Source: an uncultured Thermoplasmatales archaeon
Lineage (GTDB): Archaea; Thermoplasmatota; E2; UBA202; DSCA01
Assembly (NCBI GenBank): GCA_964606745.1
Contig: CAZSHJ010000003.1
Coordinates: forward strand, 4,806 to 68,805
Reading direction: 5' to 3'
Length of the DNA stretch: 64,000 bases
Made by a program: the position numbers and the translations under genes. Below, piece by piece: positions 7,940 to 34,528 of this stretch; position 1 is the first letter of the stretch; each line of letters opens with the position of its first letter. The notes below the pieces were generated by a model. The model did not search any database. It saw only the letters and a list, made by a program, of their open reading frames with translations, and was not told where the DNA came from.

Positions 7940-8891
7940 CGCGAAAATTACGGACAAGATGAGAAATTTGAGGGACGGTTATAGTTCCGCATTGATAAAG
8001 CTCGGCTACGAAAATGAGAATGTGGTTGTGCTTGATGCAGATTTAGCCCTTTCTACAAAAACGAAGCGATTCGGCACCATCTTTTCCGAACGATTTTTTG
8101 ACTGCGGTATCTCCGAGGCAAACATGATGGGTATGGCCGCAGGCCTTGCGACATGCGGGAAAATAGCGTTTGCATCCTCCTTTGCGGTCTTTGCAACGGG
8201 GCGGTGTTATGACCAGATAAGGCAGTCGGTAGCATATCCCGAGTTGAATGTGAAAATCGTGGCGACGCATGCAGGTATATCCGTGGGCGGCGACGGGGCG
8301 AGCCACCAGATGCTTGAGGACATGGCATTGATGCGTGCCCTGCCGAACATGCGAGTTATCGCTCCGGCGGATGCAATAGAGGTTGAGGACGTTGTACCCG
8401 CCATCGCATCTTATCCTGGGCCTTTTTACGTTCGCATGGGGCGAGCCAATGCTCCTGTACTTTTCAGAAGGCATACAAAATTTAAGGTGGGAAAGGCAAA
8501 ACTGCTGAGGAACGGAGATGACATCACAATAATATCAACCGGGACGATGACCGCCGAGGCATTGAGAGCATACGGGTTACTGAAGGAGGAAGGCATCGGT
8601 GCAAGGGTAGTCCACATGCCGACGGTGAAGCCCGTGGACAGGAGGGCAGTGATGAAAGCGGCTGACGATACGGGACTCATAATTACCTGCGAGGAACATT
8701 CGGTAATCGGCGGGCTGGGAGGCGCTGTCTCGAGAGCGATGAGCGAGGACCCTGTGCCCATGACAAGAATAGGCATAAATGACACGTTCGGCGAATCCGG
8801 GGAGGCGGCCGAGCTGGTGAGAAAGTACGGTATGACGGCGGACAACATAGCGGGGACTGCAAAGAAAATGATAAAGGAAAAGAAGGGTTAG
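7932..8891 (+). CDS. Transketolase, C-terminal (pyrimidine-binding) subunit.
   Basis: 319 aa. It overlaps the N-terminal subunit by 8 bp. FGESG and a transketolase C-terminal domain are present. Confidence 0.9.
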   Translation: MVSAKITDKMRNLRDGYSSALIKLGYENENVVVLDADLALSTKTKRFGTIFSERFFDCGISEANMMGMAAGLATCGKIAFASSFAVFATGRCYDQIRQSVAYPELNVKIVATHAGISVGGDGASHQMLEDMALMRALPNMRVIAPADAIEVEDVVPAIASYPGPFYVRMGRANAPVLFRRHTKFKVGKAKLLRNGDDITIISTGTMTAEALRAYGLLKEEGIGARVVHMPTVKPVDRRAVMKAADDTGLIITCEEHSVIGGLGGAVSRAMSEDPVPMTRIGINDTFGESGEAAELVRKYGMTADNIAGTAKKMIKEKKG

Positions 8892-9027
8892 AGATTGAAT
8901 ATTTCTGATATTATTCCTTTCCCAAATATTTGAACAAGCCAGTCAAATATTTTTTCAATATATGTCCCTATCGCCTCTAAACACATCATATATTGTGGGT
9001 TTAAAAGAAAAAGGAATAGATAAAATC

Positions 9028-10920
9028 CTAGGGGTAGCCACCGATTTTCAGGCTTGGGTCTCCAAGCAAACACCATTCCTCTATTGTTTTCCCATCCTTT
9101 TTATCTGTCATCGGAAACTCTGTAAGATAATACGATATCGCTGCTCCATGAGTCTCTCCGAGAATATCCTTTTCTTCTTCTGTATATAACCTAAAAAATT
9201 CGATATCAATTCTATATCCATAATACTCTATACAATCAGGTATTCCATTTCCATTGGCGTCCCCCGTTCTAGCTGGACCATAAGATGTGCATCCTATGGT
9301 TGCTATTGCTCCACCATCAATTTTACGAGTCAGCCACCAACTGAAACACTCGGGACCGAAGGAAGCATGATTGATTATAGCTGATAAGTTTTCAAAGTCA
9401 AGTAGGTTAAGTAAACTAATATCAAACTTGCTATTACTACAACCACCAATCAAGCAAATTGGATACATATCCTTGTTCTTAAAAAGCATAAATTGAGCTT
9501 CATCGATTCCGATCCACACACTCTCATCCAGAGGAGGATGTGTTGCCCAGCTCATCGGGTTGCCGTGTCCCTCAAAATCCAAAAATCCGCATCCTTCGCT
9601 AACTGCATCAATAATATCTTTGCCCTCAGTCAAAGTGTTATCAGATGTAAAGAGTGTTGAAATTTCAAATCCAACATCTTTAAGATAATCTGCGGCTGCC
9701 AATACGGCAAGTTCTCCGTCATAATATTGGTCACCTGCAAACGAATCTCCTCCTATCCCAACGTATTTCTTAGACCAACTTTCTCCATATGCAGTTGTCT
9801 CATAGGTTATTATTTTCTCGACCATGATATCTACTTCAAATTTATTTCTACATGCCAACCTGCCTACATACACATCAGGATACCAATCAAGGACATCTTT
9901 CCCACCAAAACGCCATTCTCCAAAAATGCCGTTGCCGTTACTATCCCAATCTTCAAATACAATATTTCCATCGTCATACTTATAGATATCAGAGAAATAA
10001 AGATCGCTGAGGAAAAATTTGTCACCATCATTAACATCTAAATAAGAATATCTTACTGGACACCACCATTTGAACTCTTTGACGCCACCATGTCTTCCAC
10101 CGACAAGTAACACGTATTTTATTCCCCACTGTTCTACAGCGTCTTTAATGAAATATTTTACCTTCTCGGCATCATCTCTTCCATTCACCGTGAAATAAGT
10201 GCCTCCGTAAATCTCGCTCAAGGTAACCAACTTTGTTGCAACCCCATAGGTTTCCTTATGATTGACTAAAGGCTGCAAAGCATCACTGAACTCAGATGGG
10301 GCAACAATGAGTAAATCATAGACATCATTCTGCAATAACGGCTTTTCTGAAGGTTCATATGTTACCTTTATTTCCATTTTATTAGTATACATCAATTCAT
10401 TTGATGCAGGGATATATCTGCAAGGAAATGCCTGTATAGAAAGGAAAATGTTATGCCCGTCACTATCCCTTCCAGCCCCAATATTGTATGAGATCCAGTC
10501 TAAAGGATAAAGCTCGGTGCTCTGGTATACTGTTCCTTCTGTTATTTTTGTGTCAGCATTTTCCATATTATGGGAAATCGGCTTGGGTGCTGGTTGTATC
10601 TTTCTATCTAACTGCATTGTGTGGATTTCTGATGTCGTTACCTCCACGTTTTCAATTTTTGTTCCAAAGGGAAATGTCATAACCTCTGTTTTATAAGGCA
10701 ATATCGGAAAGTCTTCATTCATTAGGTAGGCCATATCACTTTCAATAAGTGTGTACTCTTGATTTTCTTTTATTTTTGGTGGTGAAAAATTAATTGAAAA
10801 AACATTTGTTTCGTTATGTTTTCCTTTGGCATCTTCCAAAACAGGTGCATTTATTCCTGCAAGCGTTGATGTTCCTAAGAGCATCACGACAATCACAACC
10901 ACTATTCCCAATTTTTTCAT
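9028..10920 (-). CDS. Secreted clan-CD cysteine peptidase-like protein (C25/gingipain-like), paralog 1.
   Basis: 630 aa with a signal peptide. A His-Gly block FEGHGNP and a Cys block ICLIGGCSNS fit the clan CD dyad. Blocks EKVKYFIKDAVEQWGIKYVLLVGG, DWDSNGNGIF...YPDVYVGRLACRN and the C-terminal LLGDPSLKIGGYP are shared with the 26140..28737 paralog. Confidence 0.6.
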   Translation of the reverse strand: MKKLGIVVVIVVMLLGTSTLAGINAPVLEDAKGKHNETNVFSINFSPPKIKENQEYTLIESDMAYLMNEDFPILPYKTEVMTFPFGTKIENVEVTTSEIHTMQLDRKIQPAPKPISHNMENADTKITEGTVYQSTELYPLDWISYNIGAGRDSDGHNIFLSIQAFPCRYIPASNELMYTNKMEIKVTYEPSEKPLLQNDVYDLLIVAPSEFSDALQPLVNHKETYGVATKLVTLSEIYGGTYFTVNGRDDAEKVKYFIKDAVEQWGIKYVLLVGGRHGGVKEFKWWCPVRYSYLDVNDGDKFFLSDLYFSDIYKYDDGNIVFEDWDSNGNGIFGEWRFGGKDVLDWYPDVYVGRLACRNKFEVDIMVEKIITYETTAYGESWSKKYVGIGGDSFAGDQYYDGELAVLAAADYLKDVGFEISTLFTSDNTLTEGKDIIDAVSEGCGFLDFEGHGNPMSWATHPPLDESVWIGIDEAQFMLFKNKDMYPICLIGGCSNSKFDISLLNLLDFENLSAIINHASFGPECFSWWLTRKIDGGAIATIGCTSYGPARTGDANGNGIPDCIEYYGYRIDIEFFRLYTEEEKDILGETHGAAISYYLTEFPMTDKKDGKTIEEWCLLGDPSLKIGGYP

Positions 10921-10938
10921 TTTATTTCACCTCTTTTT

Positions 10939-12315
10939 TTACTTTCCTACAGGTACAACAAACATTGGATCAAAATCATCATCTAGCCCAAGTATGGATA
11001 GGACGGATTCATCGTCTGTCACAGGAAACACATTTGCGGAAAGACCGCATGCTGTTGTTTCTAATAACACGTTATGGGCTGATGACCCTGCTTCAAAATG
11101 CCATACCCATCGTATACTTTCATCCGAAAAGTCATCATGCCATTCTGGTCTTGTGTGATCTATATCCAACACAGAAACGATGGTAAGAGGGGCAGAACTA
11201 ACAGATAAATCAGATGCTTGAGCAATTTCATCTCTCATGTCCCCGTTTGCAACTTTCATCATAAAAGTCATTATTGGAATTCCAAAAAAGTCAACAGGGG
11301 CACTCTTGAGTAACCAATTTATGCTGGTTAGAAGATTAGGGTAGTATCTATAAATGCCAGATTCTGTAATTGCATATATATCAAATGGATAATAACCATG
11401 CCCGCTCGGGACAGTTCGGTGTCTTTTCACCGTATTTGACGAACCACTCTTATCAAGGTAATACGAGAATCCATAGGACGACCAGATTAATTGACTTATC
11501 TCCTGCTCTGTTAACTCACCAGCAAACGATGTCCCCTCGTTTCTTTCTTCTAATGCAGTCGTTAAAGATATATCTGATGCCTCAACTCGTGGAAGCAATG
11601 AAATCCACTGTGGCTTATAGTCAAAATTATATGGGTGTTCTGGGTGACCAAGAGGCATAACAATCTTCCCTTTTTCAGTAGAGGGGACACCCATCTTTCT
11701 ATCTATGGGCGATGTCGGTACCTCTGCTGTAACCACCACCCCTAAATCAATGGCATTCGCCGAGAACTGAATATTCTGATACATCGCCCCGATTTGAGCG
11801 CATCCAATGTTTTCATCGCTCTTGGTTTTATTCCAGACAAGAGCCAATTGGATAGGTGCCTTATATTGCCATCCAACCCCGTCCCTGTAATCTCCTTCCA
11901 TATAAAAAACAAGTGAATGGTTCAATGCATCATATTTGTATACTGTATCCTCTTTTAGAACATAAATCTCTATTGCATAGTTGCCACCAATGTCGTAAAT
12001 AGTTCGTTTTCCATCATCTCTGTATCCACATGCAGACCATAGAATCGTAGATAATTCTTCGTCGGTTACAGGCTCATCGGTAAACTCTCTTACCGACATT
12101 CTCCTGAAAATAGCCTCTTCAAGAGGCATATCAATCGTAAGTGGTGGAGGAAGCATATAGTCCTGTAAAGCAAAGCCTTCTTTTTCTCCACTCATAAAAA
12201 TTGAAGAATTATGTAATCCCATTGTTGGCATGATGGCAAGACTAAAAAAAACTGCTATAACTCCAACAACCAACCTTTTTTTCCATATCGTCTTTCCCAT
12301 TTTTTGCCTCCGCAA
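10939..12315 (-). CDS. Membrane-anchored protein with two nitroreductase/SagB-type dehydrogenase-like domains.
   Basis: 458 aa. An N-terminal hydrophobic anchor is followed by two repeats of the nitroreductase signature: RRMSVREF...LSTILWSACGY + GCAQIGAMYQNIQFSANAIDLG, and LTEQEISQLIWSSYGFSY + GSSAHNVLLETTACGLSANV. It lies 18 bp upstream of the peptidase, in the same orientation. Confidence 0.5.
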   Translation of the reverse strand: MRRQKMGKTIWKKRLVVGVIAVFFSLAIMPTMGLHNSSIFMSGEKEGFALQDYMLPPPLTIDMPLEEAIFRRMSVREFTDEPVTDEELSTILWSACGYRDDGKRTIYDIGGNYAIEIYVLKEDTVYKYDALNHSLVFYMEGDYRDGVGWQYKAPIQLALVWNKTKSDENIGCAQIGAMYQNIQFSANAIDLGVVVTAEVPTSPIDRKMGVPSTEKGKIVMPLGHPEHPYNFDYKPQWISLLPRVEASDISLTTALEERNEGTSFAGELTEQEISQLIWSSYGFSYYLDKSGSSNTVKRHRTVPSGHGYYPFDIYAITESGIYRYYPNLLTSINWLLKSAPVDFFGIPIMTFMMKVANGDMRDEIAQASDLSVSSAPLTIVSVLDIDHTRPEWHDDFSDESIRWVWHFEAGSSAHNVLLETTACGLSANVFPVTDDESVLSILGLDDDFDPMFVVPVGK

Positions 12316-12457
12316 GTATATAATAAAAGTTTATACAAAAACTTTTCTATTGCTTGACGGCGTCATGTTAACATATGAAAGCATATGGAATATTTTGGTG
12401 GATTCGGCAAGTTAAGTCATCGATAAAAACCCCTATATATGCCAATTTTATTGCCAA

Positions 12458-13348
12458 GTGGAGAAAATGAAAATATTTATCGATACGGCAGATTTGAATG
12501 AGATAAAGGAGGCGTATTCATGGGGCGTCGTTGACGGCGTGACGACCAATCCGTCCCTGATAAAAAAGGCGGTTGACGGACTGAAGGTAAGGGGAGAGGT
12601 GGTCACAATGGAGGAATACATAAAAGGAATATGCATTGCCGTCGATGGTCCGGTGAGCCTTGAAGTCAAGGGGGTAAAAGCCGGGGAAATCATAAAAGAA
12701 GCCGAGACACTTTACAAAAAATTCAATTCGGTGAACGGTAATGTCGTAATCAAGGTTCCGGTAAATACTGCAATGTCTGAGGGAGATGGGAATTTCGAGG
12801 GCATAAAGGCAATAAAGCATCTTGAGGGCAAGGGCATTCCTACAAATGCAACGCTTGTAATGTCGGCGGAGCAGGCGCTGATGGCGGCGAAGGCGGGAGC
12901 AAGTTATGCAAGCCCATTTCTAGGCAGGATAGACGATTATATCCGAAAAAATCTGGGCATAGAATTTGGAAAGAGTGATTATCACGGCACCGGGGTAATG
13001 AAAAAAATTGAAACGGCAGAGGCGGTGGAACTGCTGGGGATTAGAGACCCTGCCGATATATATCGTAAATTGTGCGATGCCGAGCTTGGCGACAGTGGGG
13101 TGCACAGCGGTGTGGAGTTTGCAGAGATCATCATGAAAATATACAGGGCTTACAATTTCGGGACAAAGGTTATTGCAGCAAGCATAAGAAATGCCCGTCA
13201 GGTGAGGGAGGTGGCAGAACTGGGTGTAGATATTGCAACAATACCCTTCGGCGTAATAAAGGAGATGATGTCTCACTACAAGACAGTGGAGGGGATGAAG
13301 AAGTTTACAAATGATGTTGTCCCCGAATACAGGGCATTGTTTGAATAG
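12458..13348 (+). CDS. tal: Transaldolase (TalC/FSA-type) carrying a ~55-aa insertion.
   Basis: MKIFIDTADLNEIKEAYSWGVVDGVTTNPSLI and the catalytic-Lys region are present. The protein is 296 aa versus ~215 for a typical short transaldolase. Confidence 0.85.
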   Translation: MEKMKIFIDTADLNEIKEAYSWGVVDGVTTNPSLIKKAVDGLKVRGEVVTMEEYIKGICIAVDGPVSLEVKGVKAGEIIKEAETLYKKFNSVNGNVVIKVPVNTAMSEGDGNFEGIKAIKHLEGKGIPTNATLVMSAEQALMAAKAGASYASPFLGRIDDYIRKNLGIEFGKSDYHGTGVMKKIETAEAVELLGIRDPADIYRKLCDAELGDSGVHSGVEFAEIIMKIYRAYNFGTKVIAASIRNARQVREVAELGVDIATIPFGVIKEMMSHYKTVEGMKKFTNDVVPEYRALFE

Positions 13349-23351: not shown

Positions 23352-23465
23352 ATGATTTGTAAAATCTGTGACATGAACGAGACAACCAACTCTGACGGCA
23401 TCTGCGATTACTGCAAACTATCAATGTTGTTTAATAAAGATACTCGCTTATTATACGCCGTATGA
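23352..23465 (+). CDS. Mini-ORF encoding a 37-aa zinc-ribbon peptide (CxxC-x10-CxxC), copy A.
   Basis: MICKICDMNETTNSDGICDYCKLSMLFNKDTRLLYAV. A copy about 85% identical at the nucleotide level lies at 26007. Confidence 0.4.
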   Translation: MICKICDMNETTNSDGICDYCKLSMLFNKDTRLLYAV

Positions 23466-24802: not shown

Positions 24803-25135
24803 ATGCCCAAGAGTAAAGAAAAACTGAAAAAAGAAATTGGGATGTTAATCAACCAGGGATACAAAGAAATCCCTGACCATGAAATGATGGGCAAAACACT
24901 TCGCATGAGAAGAGGAGACCAGCAGTTTTTCTATCCGGATACAAAAAAGGTTATTCAAATGGTAAGGCGTGGCTCTAAGGATAACAAACTTTACTATGTT
25001 GTTTACGGGGACAGAAAATACCATGATGATCTATTCCTCGTACCAGCAGAAAACTTTGGAGATGAATTACCCGGCAAAGACCAGAAAACCTTTTCCCAGT
25101 TGAACGCCCGAAAATGGAGTGAAAAAAGGAAATGA
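24803..25135 (+). CDS. Hypothetical basic protein.
   Basis: 110-aa ORF with no motif. Confidence 0.35.
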   Translation: MPKSKEKLKKEIGMLINQGYKEIPDHEMMGKTLRMRRGDQQFFYPDTKKVIQMVRRGSKDNKLYYVVYGDRKYHDDLFLVPAENFGDELPGKDQKTFSQLNARKWSEKRK

Positions 25136-25992
25136 TTAAAATGGAAAAGAGGATATTAGGTGTTTTGGTTTGTGTACTGATGATTGCAACGGTTTTTCCA
25201 ACTGTGGCAATAGGAAGTGAAGAATTGGTTTATTCTCTTCGGCAGATAAATTGTGACTACCTGGAGATAAATGTTACAACAGATAAGCAAAGTTATCAAA
25301 AAGGCGAACCAGTCAACATCATCATTACAAATGTTGATGAAGTGCCTATGTTAGGTTTTCCTTATCTTGACATCTATAACGTCTCCGCAAATGACCTTGT
25401 ATTTTGGGCACGACCTGTGGACATGCCTGATTTATGTCAACTTGACCCCGGGGAAAGCCAAAATTATACCTGGAATCAAAAAGATATGCATGAAAATCAA
25501 GTAGATGTTGGAGAATATATGGTTCTTTTCACCCTCATGGCTTGCTTTGGACCAGTTGCCAGAGACAACGCTAAATTTATGATATTTGACCGTTCTTTAA
25601 ACGAACCACCAAATCAACCAACAAAGCCTTCTGGTAAAACAAATGGAGAAACAGGTACCTCATACTCATACTCATCGTCAACCACTGACCCGGAAGGAAA
25701 TCAAATCTACTATATGTTTGACTGGGATGACGGAACCAACAGTGGTTGGATTGGGCCATTCGACCCAGGACAGCCAGCAAGCGAATCACACATCTGGAAT
25801 GCTCAGGGTTCATATCAAATCAAAGTAAAAGCCAAAGATGAATATAACGCAGAAAGCGATTGGTCTGATCCTTTGCCAGTTAGCATGCCAAAAATCTATG
25901 AAAATACGTTATTAGCATTGCTGGAAAAACTCAATGAATGGTTTATGCAAGCATTTGGAAGAGAGATATTGTCGTGGGCGTTCAACCTATAA
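25132..25992 (+). CDS. Secreted protein with a PKD-like domain.
   Basis: Signal peptide, plus YYMFDWDDGTNSGWIGPF...QIKVKAKDEYNAESDWSD, which is PKD-like. Confidence 0.5.
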   Translation: MIKMEKRILGVLVCVLMIATVFPTVAIGSEELVYSLRQINCDYLEINVTTDKQSYQKGEPVNIIITNVDEVPMLGFPYLDIYNVSANDLVFWARPVDMPDLCQLDPGESQNYTWNQKDMHENQVDVGEYMVLFTLMACFGPVARDNAKFMIFDRSLNEPPNQPTKPSGKTNGETGTSYSYSSSTTDPEGNQIYYMFDWDDGTNSGWIGPFDPGQPASESHIWNAQGSYQIKVKAKDEYNAESDWSDPLPVSMPKIYENTLLALLEKLNEWFMQAFGREILSWAFNL

Positions 25993-26006: not shown

Positions 26007-26100
26007 ATGATTTGTAAAATCTGCGGCGTGAACGAGACAACCAACTCTGACGTCATCTGTGATTACTACAAGCTCTCCCTACTGTTCAATTACTACCTGC
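26007..26100 (+). pseudogene. Degenerate copy B of the zinc-ribbon mini-ORF; the fourth Cys is replaced by Tyr.
   Basis: MICKICGVNETTNSDVICDYYKLSLLFNYY. It is embedded in a longer spurious ORF (25938..26258) that runs into the 3' end of the peptidase gene. Confidence 0.35.
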
Positions 26101-26139: not shown

Positions 26140-28737
26140 CTACGGATATCCGCCTATTCTCAAGCTCGGGTCGCCCAGCAGAATCCACTGCTGCACGGCT
26201 TTTTCATCTATGGAATCCCATCCCAAGTCGGGGAACCACCAGCATTCGGGCAGTGTAAAGGACTTGAAGTGGCTGATGTAGCTGGTCTGGGTCTGGGCGT
26301 ATGCGGTACCCAGCATGTCATATTCATGCTCGCCGTACTGGCGGAAGAACTCCGAGGTAATCCAACCGTCTCCTGCCCCAACCGTACAGAACTCTCCTTC
26401 CCAGCCCCAGCCGAAGCCCGTGTTGCCCATGGATGCAATAGCTCCCGTTTCGGGCATCTTCACAATATACCAACTCCAGCATTCAGGTGTGGGCTGACCG
26501 TAGGTGTGCATGTAGATATTTTTACCGAAGAAGAGCAGGAAGAAGATATCCAGTACTGAGGGAACCAGTGACACGTTGAACAGGCTGTTGTGACAGCCAC
26601 CCACTACCACCACCGGATATTTACCCGTATTGGCCAGCTGCTTCATGGGAAATGCCGGAAATTGTATCCAGGGGAAGAATGGGGAAACCTGGGAAACTGT
26701 AAGGCCGTCCACCGAACCGTACTGTCGGTTGCCGGGTATGCCGGGATATTGGTCGCCCCAATACCCAGGGCTGCCGTGCCCGGAGAAAAAGGCGAAACCG
26801 TGACCCTGGCTGAAGGCCTCGATGATGTCAGTCTGACCGGTAAATCGGCCGTTGGATGTCCATACAATCTCCTGTTCAAACCGCTCCGGCATGTAGTAGA
26901 GGGCTCCTCCTCGACCGTGCAGGGACTTGGCACCGGTGACCCATTCGCCTTCATAATAGACCTCGGTGTGGTTGCGGTAGTCGTTGAACATCACCTCCCC
27001 GTTGCTGTTTTCTATCCACAGGTGTACGTCCGTGACGTTGCCGTAGGGCTGCGGGTCATAAGACTTGCCTCTGATGTGCAACACGCCGTCCATGTAAGAA
27101 ACGTTTGCCCACCAGAAAAGAGTGTTGCAGTACGCCTCGCTCTCGCTGGGGGTGTACGAATAGTCATCGCTGCCCAGGACATCGCCATCAGATATAGATA
27201 CGATTTCAGTAATAGGTGGGGCCGGATACCCATCTTGCAGGGCAGGATTGAGATGGTCGTCGTGGTTGAAATGCAGTTCGGTGTCGGCACCCCGGTCAAG
27301 GTCAACGTTAACCACGTCAGCTGGGCCAGTGTCGCCATCGTCGTTGGTGCTCTGGGCGTAAATGGTGTATTGTCCGTCGGGAAGACCCGTGGTGTCCCAT
27401 TGGAAGTCCATGTCATGCTGGTCAAGAAACCCGTCGCCGGACGCCACCATGACGCTCTCAAACCAGTCGGCATTGTAGGTAGTGGTCTCGTAAGTGATAA
27501 TCTTATTCACCACGTCCTTAACCTCCTGGACGTTCCGGCAGGCCAGCCGGCCCACGGCTACATCCGGGTATAGGTCTGTAACATCCTCCGGGGCACCTGT
27601 CTCGTCGGTCCATTCGGCAAAGATGCCGTTGCCGTTGCTGTCCCAGTCCTCAAATGCACCCCCTGTCTTGTAGATGTCGGCGTAATACAAGTCGCAGGGA
27701 TAACCGGGCTCTCCGGACACCAGATTTGAATATCTTACGGGTACGTGCCATCCCTGAACTCCGCAGTTGGCATTGTCACGGGGCTTGGCATACAACAAGG
27801 ACTTGAGTCCGCCGGCTAGGATAACGTATTTAATGCCCCAAGACTCGATGGCGTCTTTGATGAAATATTTAATTTTCTCTGGCTCATCCACACCGTCATA
27901 CTGGGCGTAGATGTCCTCGGTGGTTTGGAGAAGGGTTGTAATGCCCATGCTGGTCTTGTGGTCCGCCAGCCACTGCAGTTCGGAGGAAAAGATTTGAGGG
28001 GCAATTATCACCAGGTCGTAGGCGCCGGCACGGGTAAGAGTGACGGCGGGTGAATCGTAAGTGATATGCATATCAGCACCGTCGGCCACATACAGCAGGT
28101 TATCTCCCGGTATATAGCGGACGGGGTAGAGGTTAACGGTTACGTAGGTGACATGCTCCATCTCTCCGTTCAGTCCGCAGCCCACGTTGTAACTGTACCA
28201 TGCGGCGGGGAACGGCTGATGGCTGTTATATAGTGAAATATCTTTTCCGGGCGGCGCGTACCCTTCAATGGGGGATAGGGGCATGGGTGCCGGAGCAGGG
28301 AGAACCTGATCCTGAACGGACTGCTCGTGTATACCGCGTGGTTCCACGGCCACTCTGACATTGCGTACTCCGAAGGGCAGTTGGAAGGTCTGTACCGTGC
28401 GGGGAAGCAGGGGCTTGCCAGGGTTAAGGAGGTAGTCTGTTCCATCACACTCCAGCCGGATATATCCGTCCGTACCTCTGGTGGAGGTAACTGATGAAAA
28501 ATCAATGGTTGCAGTGCGGGGGGCATACATGCCAGACGGCGATGTGCGGTAATCCGTCCCGTGGTTCACGGAAACAGCGGCTGCCCCCAGCCCACCCAAA
28601 ACAATCATGTACACAACGGCAATAGCGAGTATTTTTTTCATAATATCACATGCATATATCGGCTGCTGACTATTAAAAATTTTGTTGGTTGATAATTGAA
28701 AGGCATTATTGGGAAAACTCAATTTTAGAATTGTCAA
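26140..28737 (-). CDS. Secreted clan-CD (C25/gingipain-like) peptidase-like protein, paralog 2. GC-rich, with a ~230-aa Ig-like insertion.
   Basis: 865 aa with a signal peptide. SGHGSPGYWG and VVVGGCHNS His/Cys blocks are present. Blocks EKIKYFIKDAIESWGIKYVILAGG, DWDSNGNGIFAEW...YPDVAVGRLACRN and the C-terminal LLGDPSLRIGGYP are shared with paralog 1. GC is markedly higher than in its neighbours. Confidence 0.6.
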   Translation of the reverse strand: MTILKLSFPNNAFQLSTNKIFNSQQPIYACDIMKKILAIAVVYMIVLGGLGAAAVSVNHGTDYRTSPSGMYAPRTATIDFSSVTSTRGTDGYIRLECDGTDYLLNPGKPLLPRTVQTFQLPFGVRNVRVAVEPRGIHEQSVQDQVLPAPAPMPLSPIEGYAPPGKDISLYNSHQPFPAAWYSYNVGCGLNGEMEHVTYVTVNLYPVRYIPGDNLLYVADGADMHITYDSPAVTLTRAGAYDLVIIAPQIFSSELQWLADHKTSMGITTLLQTTEDIYAQYDGVDEPEKIKYFIKDAIESWGIKYVILAGGLKSLLYAKPRDNANCGVQGWHVPVRYSNLVSGEPGYPCDLYYADIYKTGGAFEDWDSNGNGIFAEWTDETGAPEDVTDLYPDVAVGRLACRNVQEVKDVVNKIITYETTTYNADWFESVMVASGDGFLDQHDMDFQWDTTGLPDGQYTIYAQSTNDDGDTGPADVVNVDLDRGADTELHFNHDDHLNPALQDGYPAPPITEIVSISDGDVLGSDDYSYTPSESEAYCNTLFWWANVSYMDGVLHIRGKSYDPQPYGNVTDVHLWIENSNGEVMFNDYRNHTEVYYEGEWVTGAKSLHGRGGALYYMPERFEQEIVWTSNGRFTGQTDIIEAFSQGHGFAFFSGHGSPGYWGDQYPGIPGNRQYGSVDGLTVSQVSPFFPWIQFPAFPMKQLANTGKYPVVVVGGCHNSLFNVSLVPSVLDIFFLLFFGKNIYMHTYGQPTPECWSWYIVKMPETGAIASMGNTGFGWGWEGEFCTVGAGDGWITSEFFRQYGEHEYDMLGTAYAQTQTSYISHFKSFTLPECWWFPDLGWDSIDEKAVQQWILLGDPSLRIGGYP

Positions 28738-28997: not shown

Positions 28998-29681
28998 ATG
29001 AATGACAAGAAGAAAATACCTGTTTTGGGTATGGAGGAAAAGACCTACGGAATGATTTGGGGCACGGTAGCAATTGTTCTGGGATTAGTCATACTCCTAT
29101 TTGTCTTCTCCCAGGCGTATGATATCGTACAGAATCCCTCAGAGAAACTAGATAAATGGGTGCCTGAGGAGATAGAAGGACCAACTGCATCATTTAGTTG
29201 GATATCTCATGACAACTCTGTTACCTTCAATGACGATTCTAAGGAGGGAGACGGAGAGATAACGAGTTGGCACTGGGATTTTGATGACAGCTCCTCGAGC
29301 AATGAGGAGAACCCCCGTCACGATTATTCCGGCTATGGAGAGTATACCGTATCTTTAGAAGTTGAGGATGAGAACGGCAAGAGCGGCAGTGTAGATACAA
29401 TTGTGCATTTGGAGGAGGGTTCCAACGATGGTCATACTGAAGAGGGTTTTCCTTTTGACCTGGGTATTATTGGCAACGTACTCGAAAGGTTTGTCATTGT
29501 AGGTCTTTTGACAGGTCTCTTTGCTGTTTTGGTCATGATTGGTGGGAGAATCACCATGGCTGGTTGTTATCTCCTGAGACCAATGCCAAAGACCTTCAAA
29601 GTTAAAGTGAAACCCAGGGACATGGAGATTGAGATTCCGAGCAAACAGATAGAAGAAAATCAACCAGAAAAACAAACATAA
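28998..29681 (+). CDS. Membrane protein with an extracellular PKD domain.
   Basis: An N-terminal TM segment, WHWDFDDSSSSNEENPRHDYSGYGEYTVSLEVEDENG (PKD-like), and a C-terminal TM segment. Confidence 0.5.
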   Translation: MNDKKKIPVLGMEEKTYGMIWGTVAIVLGLVILLFVFSQAYDIVQNPSEKLDKWVPEEIEGPTASFSWISHDNSVTFNDDSKEGDGEITSWHWDFDDSSSSNEENPRHDYSGYGEYTVSLEVEDENGKSGSVDTIVHLEEGSNDGHTEEGFPFDLGIIGNVLERFVIVGLLTGLFAVLVMIGGRITMAGCYLLRPMPKTFKVKVKPRDMEIEIPSKQIEENQPEKQT

Positions 29682-30033: not shown

Positions 30034-31287
30034 ATGAAATTTGAAGAGCTCGATATGAATCCAATGTTCCTGAAAAAAGCAAGGGAGCATGGATTCAAAG
30101 AACTTACTTACATTCAGGAGAGATGTATACCCGAAATAAACAAGGAGAAAGATGTGGTCGGTCAGGCGGAAACGGGTTCCGGAAAAACCCTTGCTTTCGG
30201 TCTTCCGATACTTGAAAAGATCGTTCCCGGCAGGGGAATTCAGGCGCTCGTCCTCACCCCGACAAGGGAGCTTTGCGTGCAGGTAACAGAAGTTTTCCAG
30301 GATTTCGGGAAATTGCTAGGCATAAAGACGGCAAGCGTATACGGTGGTGTGAGTATAGAACCCCAGATGAGGAATATACGCAAATCCGATATAATTGTCG
30401 GCACTCCTGGTAGAATACTCGACCATATTGGCAGGAATACAATACATTTCGATAATTTACGATTTCTCGTGCTTGATGAAACTGACAGGATGCTGGATAT
30501 GGGGTTCATAGATGATGTCAATAGGATTATATCTTATACGCCGAAGAAACGACAGACTCTTATGTTCAGTGCCACCATATATGAAGATATTCACCGAGTA
30601 ATGAATAGATATCTCAGGAACCCCCTGATTGTGAAGACCCGTTCACATGTCGATGAAAGCAAACTGGAGCAGGTATACTACGATATATTTCCTCAGAACC
30701 TCAAGTTCTCCCTCCTTTTGCATCTGCTCAGGAACAGCACGCCCGGTCTGGCAATAGTGTTCTGCGGGACAAGACGCGAGTCCGATATTGTTGCAAGAAA
30801 CCTCAAAAATCAGGGCATAAATGCCGTAGCGATACATGGGGGAATGAGCCAGAACAAAAGGCTTAGTTCGCTCAATTCATTGAAGAACAAAAAAACAGAT
30901 GTACTTGTTGCAACCGATGTGGCGGCCCGGGGGCTTGATATAAAGGACGTCACCCACATATATAACTATGATACGCCAAAGACAGCCAAGGAATATCTCC
31001 ACCGCATAGGAAGAACCGCACGTGCCGGGGAGAATGGTACTGCAGTCACCCTTCTTACGAAGCGTGACCACGATAATTTCAGGCGGATACAGAAGGAATA
31101 TGAAATGGAGATAAAACGGACGGATATGCCTGACTTCAAGAGAGTTGCATTCACAAGGGATTATGATAGAAGGGGAACAAGGGATTCTGACAGGAGAGAA
31201 AGGCGATTCAAGGGGTACAACAAATATCCGACTCCGGCTGCTTACCGCCATACATCGGCGAAATCAAGGGGATACAACCGGCGATAA
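30034..31287 (+). CDS. DEAD-box ATP-dependent RNA helicase.
   Basis: Q-motif, AETGSGKT, PTRELC, DETD (a DEAD variant), SAT, HRIGRTAR and a basic RG-rich tail. Confidence 0.85.
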   Translation: MKFEELDMNPMFLKKAREHGFKELTYIQERCIPEINKEKDVVGQAETGSGKTLAFGLPILEKIVPGRGIQALVLTPTRELCVQVTEVFQDFGKLLGIKTASVYGGVSIEPQMRNIRKSDIIVGTPGRILDHIGRNTIHFDNLRFLVLDETDRMLDMGFIDDVNRIISYTPKKRQTLMFSATIYEDIHRVMNRYLRNPLIVKTRSHVDESKLEQVYYDIFPQNLKFSLLLHLLRNSTPGLAIVFCGTRRESDIVARNLKNQGINAVAIHGGMSQNKRLSSLNSLKNKKTDVLVATDVAARGLDIKDVTHIYNYDTPKTAKEYLHRIGRTARAGENGTAVTLLTKRDHDNFRRIQKEYEMEIKRTDMPDFKRVAFTRDYDRRGTRDSDRRERRFKGYNKYPTPAAYRHTSAKSRGYNRR

Positions 31288-31398
31288 ACGGGGTATCCGG
31301 TAACTCCCTTTTTCCGTGGACTATAATGGACAGGGAAAGCAAAATTTGGGGGTTGTAACGTTATATGCAAGATAGAATTATTTCCTCATCTACGGTTA

Positions 31399-32517
31399 GT
31401 GCAACATTTAAAATCCCGACCTTTTTTGAATATTCTTATAAGCGGCAATTCGTTTTGGTACGTTAAAATGGTAAAAATTGAAAAGGTAATATTCTGCGTG
31501 TTTGTGGCAATGCTTTTCGTGATGCCCATGCTGTCTCAATCTGATTCATCATCTCTGGTGGGGGGCGGGGAGGTAAAAAATGATGACCGTTGTATTGGAT
31601 TTAATGTCCTGGGCGATGGGTGGAATAAAACATTCGGGGGAAGTGATGCTGACCAGAGCCACTCCGTCATACAAACTGCCGACGGGGGATATGTTCTGGC
31701 GGGAACGACCGCCTCGTTCGGTGCAGGGGGCGATGACATGTGGCTTGTCAAAACCGATGGCGAGGGCAACGAGCAGTGGAACCGGACTTTCGGGGTGAGG
31801 GAAAATGATGTGGGATGGGACTGCCAGCAGACTTCGGACGGCGGATATGTCATGGCAGGTTTTGCCGGTTCTTCGTCTTCGATATACGGCAATGTTCTGT
31901 TGATAAAGACCGACGGTAACGGCGATGAAATGTGGACAAAAACTTTTGAGGACGACGATGGCAGCAGTGCATACTCGGTTCAGCAGACCGCCGACGGCGG
32001 CTACATCATAGGCGGGGTTACCAACCTCGGCGAGGGGCATGGTGACATATTACTCGTCAAAACGGACGGTGACGGAAACTTTCTGTGGGACAGGATTTTT
32101 GGGGGATATTATCCAGATGCCTGCTACTCGGTTCGGCAGACCGCCGATGGATGCTACATCATAGCCGGAGAAACATATTCTTTCGGTGCAGGAATTGTGG
32201 ATGCATGGCTCGTAAAGACGGCAGAGCCTGCGGTGAAGATATGGATTTCGGGCGGTTTTGGATTGCATGTGTTAATCAAAAATATTGCTGACGATGAACT
32301 GCACGACATAGGTTATTCAATCGAGTTCAGCGGGCTGATATTCATTGGCAGGGAAAGTACGGGGTTCATCAGTTCAATTCCCCCGGGCGGGGAGGTGGCG
32401 GTCAACATGCCGGTTTTCGGCATTGGTTCGGTGACGGTGAAGGTGACGGCATCGGATATATCAAAGACGGCACACTTCCGTGTATTTGGGCCATTTTTGT
32501 TGCCAGACGCAAAATAA
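31399..32517 (+). CDS. Secreted beta-propeller-repeat (SBBP-like) protein.
   Basis: Six or more repeats of the form QTADGGY...AG.T.SFGAGG.D.WLVKTDG.GN..W. A signal peptide is present; the probable start is near 31468. Confidence 0.55.
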   Translation: MQHLKSRPFLNILISGNSFWYVKMVKIEKVIFCVFVAMLFVMPMLSQSDSSSLVGGGEVKNDDRCIGFNVLGDGWNKTFGGSDADQSHSVIQTADGGYVLAGTTASFGAGGDDMWLVKTDGEGNEQWNRTFGVRENDVGWDCQQTSDGGYVMAGFAGSSSSIYGNVLLIKTDGNGDEMWTKTFEDDDGSSAYSVQQTADGGYIIGGVTNLGEGHGDILLVKTDGDGNFLWDRIFGGYYPDACYSVRQTADGCYIIAGETYSFGAGIVDAWLVKTAEPAVKIWISGGFGLHVLIKNIADDELHDIGYSIEFSGLIFIGRESTGFISSIPPGGEVAVNMPVFGIGSVTVKVTASDISKTAHFRVFGPFLLPDAK

Positions 32518-32556
32518 ATAGAAAAAGCAAAAAATGTACAGAGGCATTACCTTTCA

Positions 32557-33432
32557 ATGAAAAAGCCATACGTTGCACTTTCTATTTCAATCGCATCGGT
32601 TTCATTTGCTGCGATATTCATAGTGTCGGCGGAAGCCCCGCCCCTTACCCTGGCGTTCTACCGCATTCTTTTCACTGCACTCATGGTTCTCCCGCTTGTG
32701 GCATTCAATAAAAAACACAGGGAGGAGATGGCAATGCTTCCTTCTCGCCATTTGCTTCTCATGGTCGGCATAGGAATAATTCTTGCCGCCCACTTTGCAT
32801 TGTGGATTTCATCACTTGAAAAAACCTCGGTGGCAAGCTCGGTTATACTCGTGACCGCCCATCCCATCATTGTCACACCCCTTGCATACCTCATTTTTAA
32901 GGAGAAGTCTTCCCCCGTAAATGTAGCAGGCATAATTCTGTCTGTTGCGGGGGTCATAACCCTCGTTATGGGGAACTACGGCATCCATTCCTCTACGCTG
33001 GAAGGTAATGTGCTTGCAATGCTCGGGGGGGCGGCTGCGGGTCTGTACATACTGGGCGGAAGGAAGATGCGTAAGACCGTATCAACGTCGTGCTACGCCT
33101 TCGTGGTTTATGCCGTCGCTTCCGTGATGCTGTTATCGCTCTGCATAATATTCGATTCTCCTGTTTACGGCATAAGCATGAGAGATTACGGGATAATTTT
33201 TCTGATGGCAATTGTTTCCGGGATGTTCGGGCATACGATGTACAACTGGGCACTGAAATACGTTCGTGCGTCTGTTGCATCCGTATCCCTGCTCGGGGAA
33301 CCGCTGGGTTCTTCGCTGCTGGCCTTTGCACTGCCTTGGATAAATCAGGTGCCAACTCTTTATACAATGGGCGGCGGATGCCTGATTATTGCGGGCATAT
33401 ACATGGCATCGCGGCATCAGGAATTGGATTAA
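32557..33432 (+). CDS. EamA/DMT-family transporter.
   Basis: 291 aa with 10 predicted TM helices in two repeated halves. Confidence 0.6.
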   Translation: MKKPYVALSISIASVSFAAIFIVSAEAPPLTLAFYRILFTALMVLPLVAFNKKHREEMAMLPSRHLLLMVGIGIILAAHFALWISSLEKTSVASSVILVTAHPIIVTPLAYLIFKEKSSPVNVAGIILSVAGVITLVMGNYGIHSSTLEGNVLAMLGGAAAGLYILGGRKMRKTVSTSCYAFVVYAVASVMLLSLCIIFDSPVYGISMRDYGIIFLMAIVSGMFGHTMYNWALKYVRASVASVSLLGEPLGSSLLAFALPWINQVPTLYTMGGGCLIIAGIYMASRHQELD

Positions 33433-33485
33433 ATCTGATTGGTGCCGTTAAGAGAATTTATAAATAATTTGCATATGCAAAATGT

Positions 33486-34415
33486 ATGAAAGTTGCGATA
33501 ACGGGGGCGGCCGGATATTTTGGGCAAAGAATAACAGAAAGACTTGAAGGAAACGAGGCATGTGATAAAATCGTGGGCATTTCAAGAAGAAAATTTGAGC
33601 ATTCCTTTAAAAAACTGGATTATTACCGTATGGATGTCAGGAGCGAGGAGCTGAAGCAATTATTTGGCAAATACGAAATTGATGCGGTTGTGCACCTTGC
33701 ATTTGTGGTAAACCCGATTCATGATGCCAAGGAAATGAACAGCATAGATGTCGAAGGGGCAAGAAATGTGCTGGAGGCTGCAAAGCAGGCAGGGGTTAAA
33801 AAAGTCATCATGACGAGCAGTACGATGGTCTACGGGGCATGGCCGGACAACCCAGAATTTTTGACGGAGAGCAGTCCTCTGAGAAGTCATCCGAAATATT
33901 ATTACAGTAAGGACAAGGTAGAAGTTGAAAAAATGTGCGGGGTTTTCAAGAAGCAGAATCCCGACATGATTATTACGATATTGAGACCGTGCCTTGTCAT
34001 AGGGCCGAATGTGAACCATTTTTATTCCCGGTTGGTGAACTGGCCCGTCCTCCCGCTGGTCGGAGGAAACAATCCCGGCATACAGTTTGTCCATGAGAAC
34101 GATATCGGGAGGGCATATGAATTCTTCTTAACGAACGATATCGGCGGAACGTTCAACATCGTGGGTGACGGGACGATGAAATGGAAGGAAATTATTGGGG
34201 CGGCAGAAAAAAGGGCTGTTAAAATGCCAGGCTTTATTGTTTATCCCATACTCAGCCTTATGTGGAAACTTCATCTGACGGAGTCGCCCCCGGAAATTCT
34301 GGACTTTATAAGATACAGGTGGGTTGCATCGGGAGATAAAGCCAGGAAAGCCGGATTCACCCCGGATTACAATTCCAAGGAAGCGCTCTATACATTCCTG
34401 AAAAAGAAAAAGTAG
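33486..34415 (+). CDS. NAD-dependent epimerase/dehydratase (extended SDR family).
   Basis: Rossmann motif ITGAAGYFGQ plus a YxxxK-type core. Confidence 0.7.
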   Translation: MKVAITGAAGYFGQRITERLEGNEACDKIVGISRRKFEHSFKKLDYYRMDVRSEELKQLFGKYEIDAVVHLAFVVNPIHDAKEMNSIDVEGARNVLEAAKQAGVKKVIMTSSTMVYGAWPDNPEFLTESSPLRSHPKYYYSKDKVEVEKMCGVFKKQNPDMIITILRPCLVIGPNVNHFYSRLVNWPVLPLVGGNNPGIQFVHENDIGRAYEFFLTNDIGGTFNIVGDGTMKWKEIIGAAEKRAVKMPGFIVYPILSLMWKLHLTESPPEILDFIRYRWVASGDKARKAGFTPDYNSKEALYTFLKKKK

Positions 34416-34455: not shown

Positions 34456-34528
34456 GGGCCCGTGGGGTAGCTTGGCATCCTTCCAGCTTGGGGTGCTGGT
34501 AACCCGAGTTCAAATCTCGGCGGGCCCA
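34456..34528 (+). tRNA. tRNA-Pro(GGG).
   Basis: 73 nt. Acceptor stem GGGCCCG/CGGGCCC is followed by discriminator A. Anticodon stem CCAGC/GCTGG has loop TTGGGGT (anticodon GGG, G37). T-arm CCGAG-TTCAAAT-CTCGG. Confidence 0.8.

Follow-up and report, generated by a model that had tools for sequence, protein, structure and literature searches.

The locus described here raises a question of origin: where two related peptidase genes of very different base composition lie on one contig, which of them was acquired? Both genes lie in a 64,000-nucleotide (nt) stretch of DNA from an uncultured Thermoplasmatota archaeon (contig CAZSHJ010000003.1, assembly GCA_964606745.1), which is best explained as chromosomal and is called the window below, and both encode proteins of peptidase family C25 (clan CD), the family of the gingipains. 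A first-pass annotation had read the two copies as separately acquired and had derived the larger, GC-rich one from a higher-GC donor, a reading that points at the wrong copy for lateral transfer. We consider it probable that the large copy is a vertically inherited resident of a conserved backbone, that the small copy is an accessory gene that arrived with a low-GC segment, and that both encode C25 zymogens. The large copy and its backbone neighbors have the following coordinates in the window.

26140..28641, minus strand: large C25 (gingipain-family) peptidase gene, 833 amino acids (aa) plus stop (open reading frame list, Pfam; product P0242 on record)
30034..34415, plus strand: backbone neighbors, namely, DEAD-box helicase, 372-aa hypothetical protein, EamA transporter, and NAD-dependent epimerase (Pfam, synteny)

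The large C25 locus is the same in at least three related lineages, that of the window included. The order epimerase, EamA, DEAD helicase, one variable slot, and large C25 gene recurs in lineage A (L005, from assembly GCA_021159125.1, and L008) and lineage B (L009 and L010, the latter from assembly GCA_011374425.1), and collinearity between the window and L005 extends through TruA, UbiA, ELP3, and a giant PKD-domain protein. Taking L005 for A and L009 for B in comparisons of pairwise divergence and topology, we found that the large C25 protein is 81.5% identical to that of A and 84.3% identical to that of B at the amino acid level, compared with 66 to 81% for three neighboring genes. The same-codon excess at identical residues was 0.127 (A) and 0.144 (B) for the large C25 gene and 0.02 to 0.14 for these neighbors. 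The topology ((A,B),window) is common to the large C25, EamA, and epimerase genes and was recovered in the subclade tree. Across 56 species-representative loci, the GC content at third codon positions (GC3) of the orthologs tracks host GC3 over a range of 0.18 to 0.88 (median excess, +0.022). Given a conserved locus, neighbor-like divergence, a congruent topology, and orthologs that follow host GC3, the proposed acquisition of the large copy from a higher-GC donor is not supported.

The composition of the large C25 gene is nonetheless partly decoupled from its neighborhood, since the values for gene and neighbors differ among lineages: GC3 is 0.656 for the gene and 0.50 to 0.55 for the neighboring genes in the window, 0.523 and 0.52 to 0.53 in lineage A (L005), and 0.655 and 0.69 to 0.74 in lineage B (L009). 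The subclade of the window gene is nested among GC-rich C25 genes (GC3 of 0.74 to 0.88). Its higher GC is a gene-specific trait, and most relatives of this lineage are GC-richer.

The large copy had been described as far more GC-rich than anything around it, which holds for its flanks but not for the window as a whole. Its GC content is 0.54 to 0.55, depending on the start used, and its GC3 of 0.656 refers to the true coding sequence (CDS); the immediately flanking genes have a GC content of ∼0.40 to 0.44, whereas Mre11, Rad50, and the C-terminal transketolase subunit (TktC), elsewhere in the window, reach GC3 values of 0.59 to 0.61. The annotation had correctly placed a PKD-domain gene on either side, both recognized by Pfam.

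25132..25992, plus strand: gene for a PKD-domain surface protein, downstream of the large copy (Pfam PKD; GC3 of 0.352; strain-variable)
28998..29681, plus strand: PKD-domain membrane protein gene, divergent from the large copy (Pfam PKD_4, E value of 9e-16; variable slot)

GC3 in the window is bimodal. Housekeeping (backbone) genes, defined by Pfam and including Topo VI A/B, transketolase, transaldolase, Mre11, Rad50, GMP synthase, PurE, ELP3, TruA, and UbiA, have a GC3 of 0.519 ± 0.051 (range, 0.42 to 0.61). Accessory (island) genes, which include a HamA and helicase pair, a PIN protein, a nucleotidyltransferase, Ig/PKD surface proteins, and a beta-lactamase-fold protein, have a GC3 of 0.310 ± 0.031. 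On a per-codon log-likelihood ratio of backbone versus island codon usage, the large C25 gene stands at the top of the backbone continuum (+0.254), followed by Mre11 (+0.246) and Rad50 (+0.239), and the small C25 gene (−0.092) and the adjacent nitroreductase gene (−0.124) both fall in the island class. The codon comparison suggested by the earlier annotation thus separates the two copies, the small one having a GC3 of 0.338. Most of the contrast that surrounds the large copy arises because its flanks and the other paralog are AT-rich accessory genes.

Of the two copies, the small, low-GC one is the likelier recent arrival. Three features describe its setting.

9028..10920, minus strand: small C25 peptidase paralog, 630 aa, GC3 of 0.338 (Pfam Peptidase_C25, E value of 7e-51)
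8892..12457, no strand assigned: low-GC segment of ∼3.6 kb with the small C25 gene and a nitroreductase-domain gene, inserted between TktC and transaldolase (Tal)
10939..12315, minus strand: nitroreductase-domain gene within the low-GC segment

We compared the transketolase/transaldolase junction with those of relatives found by a metagenome scan with transketolase. In the closest of these, L093 (TktN and TktC 91% and 89% identical, respectively), the ATG of transaldolase overlaps the stop codon of transketolase. In the window, 3.6 kb of low-GC DNA splits the two genes, with the small C25 and nitroreductase-domain genes on the opposite strand, and immediately ahead of transaldolase a vestige of the ancestral junction (GTGGAGAAAATGAAAATATT) is still present. 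The segment is bracketed by a direct repeat of 12 nt (8863-8874 and 12462-12473), although a repeat so short could be due to chance. Another relative, L094, carries a different gene, for an Ig-domain surface protein, in the same slot, and the transketolase/transaldolase/nitroreductase context was not found among the C25-centered loci. The nearest homolog of the small copy, with 88.9% nucleotide identity over 1.9 kb, is found on L091, a contig of uniformly low GC, in an unrelated context, and the next-best homologs are only 66 to 67% identical. Elsewhere, small-type orthologs match the GC3 of their hosts (0.62 in L092 and 0.78 in L003). The small copy thus combines insertion relative to a close relative, island-type composition, and a variable context.

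Variable slots also lie on both sides of the large copy. The slot held in the window by the PKD gene at 28998..29681 is empty in L005 and L008 and is occupied by a low-GC beta-helix gene in L009 and L010. On the other side, a strain contig from JGI (L002) is 99.9% identical to the window from position 31056 down to 25851 and then diverges abruptly, with only 63% amino acid identity over the rest of the PKD protein. Position 25851, inside the PKD gene at 25132-25992 and beside the large C25 gene, is a strain-level recombination breakpoint.

The two open reading frames (ORFs) of the first-pass annotation, 9028..10920 and 26140..28737, were confirmed on the minus strand, with a change to the start of the second. 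Homologs of the large copy are ∼830 aa long and cover 96% of the long ORF, and its exact 833-aa product, P0242, is recorded in three independent public assemblies, whereas the 865-aa version is not on record. Because of these lengths, this coverage, and this record, we place the start of the large CDS at the ATG at 28641 and regard the upstream TTG at 28737 as a spurious start. A TTTTTAATA element ∼30 nt upstream of this ATG is a putative promoter. The predicted architecture of the large copy, all on the minus strand, is as follows.

28570..28641, minus strand: putative N-terminal signal peptide or membrane anchor, MKKILAIAVVYMIVLGGLGAAAVS (read from the sequence)
28033..28518, minus strand: gingipain-type prodomain, approximately residues 42-203 (Pfam Propeptide_C25, E value of 5e-6; Foldseek)
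27430..28020, minus strand: catalytic subdomain A, approximately residues 208-404 (Pfam stretch 243-467 of the 865-aa ORF; phmmer; invariant columns)
26842..27429, minus strand: all-beta insertion, residues 405-600 (conserved; absent from the small paralog)
26143..26841, minus strand: catalytic subdomain B, residues 601-833, with His622 and Cys683 and the C-terminal end GDPSLRIGGYP

The MKKILAIAVVYMIVLGGLGAAAVS region was modeled as a helix (residues 2-21) followed by a disordered linker, and its cleavage as a signal peptide may be presumed from the sequence.

Pfam, phmmer, and Foldseek searches and invariant His/Cys motifs agree that both proteins belong to clan CD, family C25, as the annotation had recognized. 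Peptidase_C25 matches the large copy with 181 bits (E value of 5e-53) and the small copy with 174 bits (E value of 7e-51), against a cutoff of 23, and Propeptide_C25 matches them with 26.1 and 28.4 bits, respectively, against a cutoff of 22. In phmmer searches against PDB sequences, SGHGSPGYWG of the large copy aligned with TGHGSETAWG of 4ief_B, the His211 motif of the gingipain RgpB, and SGDGF aligned with the Glu152 segment of RgpB, which puts D403 at the Glu152 position. The equivalent of the S1 Asp163 of RgpB falls at the start of the insertion, where the phmmer alignment is unreliable. Across 41 large-type orthologs, S401-G402-D403-G404, G621-H622-G623, and G681-G682-C683 are invariant, as are D392, G451-H452-G453, G492, and C494 across 40 small-type sequences, and the conserved Cys motifs (G681-G682-C683 in the large copy; G492/C494 in the small copy), candidate counterparts of Cys244 of RgpB, lie inside the region covered by the C25 profile. 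We propose from these patterns that the catalytic residues are His622 and Cys683 (codons at 26776..26778 and 26593..26595, coordinates checked) with Asp403 in the large copy and His452 and Cys494 with Asp392 in the small copy.

The large protein was modeled with AlphaFold from the 41-sequence alignment (mean predicted local distance difference test [pLDDT] score, 70; predicted template modeling [TM] score, 0.71), and the model matched gingipains over both domains. Foldseek aligned it with the prodomain chains of RgpB and Kgp with E values of 4e-10 to 8e-9 (4e-10 to 8e-10 for 4ief_G and 5mun_A) and TM-scores, normalized to the target, of 0.63 to 0.66, and with their catalytic domains (4ief_B/D, 6i9a_A, and 4rbm) with E values of 7.5e-10 to 1.8e-8, a probability of 1.00, and target-normalized TM-scores of 0.56 to 0.57. 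The match to PorU, a C25-family sortase, was weaker (E value of 5e-6). For the large copy, the structure prediction therefore agrees with the caspase-hemoglobinase alpha/beta fold suggested in the first reading, with moderate confidence given the mean pLDDT score.

The motif LLGDPSL[KR]IGGYP, previously noted at the C terminus of both proteins, is indeed present in each. As a sorting signal specific to these paralogs it can be rejected, since it is the conserved last strand of the C25 catalytic domain, where LLGDPSLRI of the large copy aligns with the end of the RgpB catalytic domain (FGDPSLLV). Pfam detected no domain beyond the catalytic domain in either protein, and both end 8 to 9 residues after the GDPSL strand; they therefore lack the Ig-like and type-IX C-terminal domains.

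The two copies are ancient paralogs, with Thermoplasmatota orthologs numbering in the hundreds for each. BLASTP aligned them in two blocks of 37% and 32% identity (E value of 2e-72), leaving ∼150 aa of the large protein unaligned in between. Each copy has more than 2,000 matches, of which the named ones are metagenome-assembled genomes (MAGs) of Thermoplasmatota: orthologs of the large copy are 55 to 84% identical and 820 to 845 aa long, and those of the small copy are 45 to 67% identical and 620 to 650 aa long, plus one at 88%. A neighbor-joining tree of 605 shared columns made the large and small types reciprocally monophyletic, with identities of 0.64 among large-type sequences, 0.50 among small-type sequences, and 0.39 (maximum, 0.46) between the two types, and a distant relative carries both types on a single contig. 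With so old a duplication, the copies are not each other's closest relatives, their best orthologs being 84% and 88% identical compared with ∼39% between the paralogs; this is the answer given by the phylogeny that the annotation had suggested. A recent tandem or segmental duplication is rejected by the low identity of the aligned blocks and by the separate orthologs of each copy.

Many Thermoplasmatota genomes carry two insertion-bearing C25 genes of the large type, one 59 to 84% identical and the other ∼50 to 53% identical to the window gene (paired loci L016/L079, L043/L086, L017/L083, L025/L085, and L013/L071). This divides the large type into at least two old subparalogs, only one of which is in the window. 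In the relative L003/L025 (3684-12526 and 18883-20760), a 1,971-aa protein that joins Peptidase_C11 (clostripain-like) to many beta-helix/NosD repeats is encoded immediately upstream of the large C25 ortholog. A small-type C25 gene lies 6 kb downstream, and the GC3 of the contig switches from ∼0.19 to ∼0.8 across this region.

The large copy had been credited with an insertion of ∼230 aa. The insertion is real, but the size is not: because 32 aa came from the spurious N-terminal extension created by the TTG start, the net difference in length between the paralogs is 203 aa. The main inserted block of ∼195 aa (approximately residues 405-600) follows the Asp403 segment, precedes the catalytic His, and is absent from the small paralog. 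It was all beta strands in both the full-length and the insert-only model, and its mean column identity is 77% across 15 orthologs, with invariant motifs FNHDDHLNP, RGKSYDP, and YYEGEW. Pfam gave only subthreshold Ig-like matches over ∼25 residues of the insertion, and Foldseek found no PDB match to the insert-only model below an E value of 0.09. In a HMMER scan of 1.84 billion representative proteins, the whole insertion was found only at this same position (43 proteins with E values of ≤1e-10), and all six of the insertion-bearing proteins checked contain Peptidase_C25, some with PKD or BNR tails; the first ∼40 residues alone also resemble repeats of large surface proteins. Because the whole block occurs only at one position in C25 proteins, we describe it as a conserved, predicted beta-sandwich that defines, and is confined to, a widely conserved C25 subfamily of 820 to 840 aa.

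By analogy with the family, each paralog would be produced as a zymogen that carries a Sec-type signal or anchor at its N terminus, an inhibitory prodomain of the gingipain type, and a catalytic domain with a caspase-like fold. The hydrophobic N-terminal segment would export or anchor the protein, and the prodomain would keep it latent until its removal outside the cell. The His/Cys dyad, assisted by the acidic residue, would then cut extracellular proteins. The resulting peptides might be taken up and fermented, as proposed for MBG-D archaea (Marine Benthic Group D) in three studies (PMC6461988, PMC9585477, and PMC6752024).

Several observations weigh against an account in which a resident large copy and an acquired small copy both encode such zymogens. 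We infer secretion, activity, prodomain removal, and substrate specificity, as well as the cause of the codon bias, from the family and the sequence; the model of the large protein reaches a mean pLDDT score of only 70, with the His/Cys pair placed by motif; and L091, which carries the nearest homolog of the small copy, might likewise be an island within the genome of a relative. The GC step falls exactly at the ends of the large CDS and both flanks are variable, a pattern that also fits gene replacement. The GC3 of the large copy lies 2.7 standard deviations above the backbone mean. It encodes Arg by CGN at 18 of 23 positions and never by AGG, compared with CGN at 163 of 570 positions (29%) in the backbone (P = 1e-6), and its NNC/NNY ratio is 0.67 versus 0.46 ± 0.08 (z = 2.5). 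The family as a whole differs from its flanks in the same direction, with avoidance of AGG (P = 1e-3), preference for NNC (P = 3e-4), and higher GC3 (P = 3.5e-5) across 58 loci, but the trend is ∼5 times weaker than in the large copy, and the window holds no ribosomal-protein or other highly expressed genes for reference. Even so, an expression-linked preference is most likely to underlie the C-ending codons, the CGN codons for Arg, and the avoidance of AGG, and we favor it because of the family-wide trends and the reported high transcription of C25 genes. At fourfold-degenerate sites, the large copy prefers C over G. A Trp-rich composition was rejected as the cause of its high GC3, which is still 0.638 without Met and Trp, compared with 0.57 to 0.60 for the top backbone genes.

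The departure of Arg and C-ending codon usage from the backbone keeps one rival in first place, although we judge it unlikely: that the large copy was replaced in situ, with synteny kept, by homologous recombination with an allele from a GC-richer, closely related member of the Thermoplasmatota. The fine-scale codon signature resembles that of orthologs in the GC-richer relatives L007 and L009, and the flanks are recombinationally active, given the variable slots on both sides and the strain breakpoint at 25851. There is also a precedent in L083, where a large-type C25 gene with a GC3 of 0.635 sits in a background of 0.319 and has its nearest relatives in genomes with a GC3 of 0.86 to 0.88, and C25 genes occur on putative plasmids in 27 Thermoprofundales genomes, according to an MBE paper (PMC9585477). 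However, no sampled GC-rich lineage has an ortholog unusually close to the window gene (84.3% identity for L009 and 79.4% for L007), and the large C25 proteins of L005 and L009 are closer to each other (86.7%) than to that of the window. Distance ratios and same-codon excess remain within the range of the syntenic neighbors, and the gene is sister to A plus B in the tree, as its neighbors are. Synonymous sites are near saturation, so that amelioration would be expected after an old transfer, which leaves as a fit only a recent one whose donor is unsampled. Vertical inheritance of the large copy, with a gene-specific codon bias, is thus the reading that we retain.

The L083 gene deserves description in its own right. 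It occupies positions 10001-12490 of contig_1443 of Euryarchaeota archaeon UBA202, where its GC content of 0.50 to 0.55 stands in a uniform background of 0.33 to 0.40, its GC boundaries coincide with the gene, and the GC3 of the flanks is 0.319 ± 0.03. Its nearest relatives are 75 to 77% identical at the amino acid level. It is a much stronger candidate for lateral transfer than the large copy in the window.

Two further proposals concern what the large copy does. We give rather little credence to the first, in which the insertion-bearing 830-aa proteins would form a distinct, near-core Thermoplasmatota subfamily with a specialized role conferred by the beta-sandwich beside the active site. 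They might, in the manner of PorU, process or anchor the abundant PKD and beta-helix surface proteins or might recognize a particular detrital substrate. If this is correct, the gene-specific codon bias reflects constitutive high expression.

The second, which seems to us more improbable still, is narrower: the large copy would be a housekeeping enzyme for the processing of surface proteins, like the C25-family sortase PorU, with the insertion as a substrate-docking module. Identities of 55 to 84% across hundreds of MAGs are high for a secreted protease, and between close lineages the large copy is more conserved than the adjacent DEAD helicase. Its backbone location and backbone-type codon usage would suit such a role, as would an insertion that is strongly conserved, restricted to one subfamily, without a fold match, and adjoining the active-site segment. 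PorU is among the structural matches, and large-type C25 genes recur beside genes for PKD or beta-helix surface proteins. These flanking genes are variable, however, rather than conserved partners, and neither a cognate sorting signal nor a cognate partner was identified. True gingipains also gave much stronger matches than PorU, and sediment enzyme assays and metatranscriptomes fit digestion (PMC6752024 and PMC6461988).

Least probable by far is that the GC-rich segment is an assembly or binning chimera of two organisms, for although the GC step is sharp at both gene ends and several related contigs are also GC mosaics, the identical gene and both junctions recur in independent Logan, JGI, and NCBI assemblies (100% identity over 8815 nt in Logan contig L001 and 99.9% over 5206 nt, spanning both junctions, in JGI contig L002) and the same gene order occurs in two other lineages, and we reject it. 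The 70.8-kb contig is present at NCBI, in JGI sample 3300031278, and in Logan run SRR9705735.

Other features of the window lie farther from the C25 genes. The largest low-GC island (∼9 kb, 34.8-43.7 kb; GC3 of 0.26 to 0.35) starts 300 nt after a tRNA-Pro(GGG) gene (34456-34528) and interrupts the epimerase-to-TruA order, which is contiguous in L005 and L008. It carries a HamA protein (PF08878, E value of 1e-47) and an adjacent DEAD/ResIII helicase, which together constitute a Hachiman-like defense pair, as well as HIT, nucleotidyltransferase, and amino acid permease genes. The gene at 49253-54661 (minus strand) encodes a surface protein of 1,802 aa that combines eight PKD domains with numerous beta-helix/NosD repeats and may be a surface-layer or adhesin component. 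The position of the gene beside ELP3 is conserved in L005 and L008, and its codon usage lacks an expression-type bias (GC3 of 0.45; CGN at 7 of 27 Arg codons). Downstream of CorA, a 37-aa ORF at 23352-23465 (plus strand), MICKICDMNETTNSDGICDYCKLSMLFNKDTRLLYAV, has a zinc-ribbon-like CxxC...CxxC pattern. A second copy (26007-26090, plus strand; ∼85% identical) lies immediately downstream of the large C25 gene; its fourth Cys is lost, and it runs antisense into the 3′ end of that gene. An Rfam scan of the window found one tRNA and no other family, and a contig look-up for P0121 gave none.

In a mosaic genome such as this one, where AT-rich genes were acquired and the GC-rich gene is native on the reading that we favor, lateral-transfer calls based on GC content call for caution. 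Work on biochemistry and expression has concrete starting points in the conserved insertion and in the codon bias specific to this gene. The enzymes bear on the remineralization of buried protein carbon, because C25 enzymes, attributed to MBG-D/Thermoprofundales, are reported to be the most abundant exported peptidases in anoxic sediment metagenomes.

The closest well-studied relatives are the gingipains RgpB and Kgp of Porphyromonas gingivalis (MEROPS C25, clan CD; PDB 4ief, 1cvr, 6i9a, 4rbm, and 5mun), with which the archaeal proteins share Pfam families and the folds of the prodomain and catalytic domain. The likeness to RgpB extends to the His of the GHG motif at the His211 position, Asp403 at the Glu152 position, and the common GDPSL terminal strand. 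In contrast, the archaeal copies are only 12 to 17% identical to gingipains and end at the catalytic domain, with no Ig-like, hemagglutinin/adhesin, or type-IX secretion C-terminal domain, and RgpB has ∼58 residues, including the S1 Asp163, where the large copy has its predicted beta-sandwich of ∼195 aa. PorU, the sortase of type-IX secretion (PDB 6za2), shares the C25 catalytic fold, although its match is much weaker than those of RgpB and Kgp. It represents a C25 member that processes surface proteins rather than digesting protein, and we saw no sign of transpeptidation in the archaeal copies. To our knowledge, there is no type-IX system in archaea.

Both copies are ordinary representatives of their protease family, which is already well known from sediment archaea, and we know of no C25 enzyme from these archaea that has been characterized biochemically. 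Nearest in host and family are the predicted extracellular C25 peptidases of MBG-D/Thermoprofundales, from the same phylum-level hosts, and our matches include Thermoplasmatales archaeon SCGC AB-540-F20. Such enzymes were described from sediment archaea by Lloyd et al. in 2013, as cited in PMC6461988, PMC9585477, and PMC6752024. According to PMC6461988 and PMC6752024, genes for exported C25 enzymes were the most abundant of the signal-peptide-bearing peptidase genes in estuarine sediment and were highly transcribed, and the former adds that metatranscriptomes placed C25 among the most expressed peptidase genes of Thermoprofundales. As far as its available text extends, the MBG-D literature treats C25 as one class, without a division into insertion-bearing 830-aa and 630-aa subfamilies or an account of how each behaves in genomes. 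The comparison made here separates archaeal C25 into at least two old subfamilies, a conserved, syntenic 830-aa form with an inserted domain and a mobile, variable 630-aa form.

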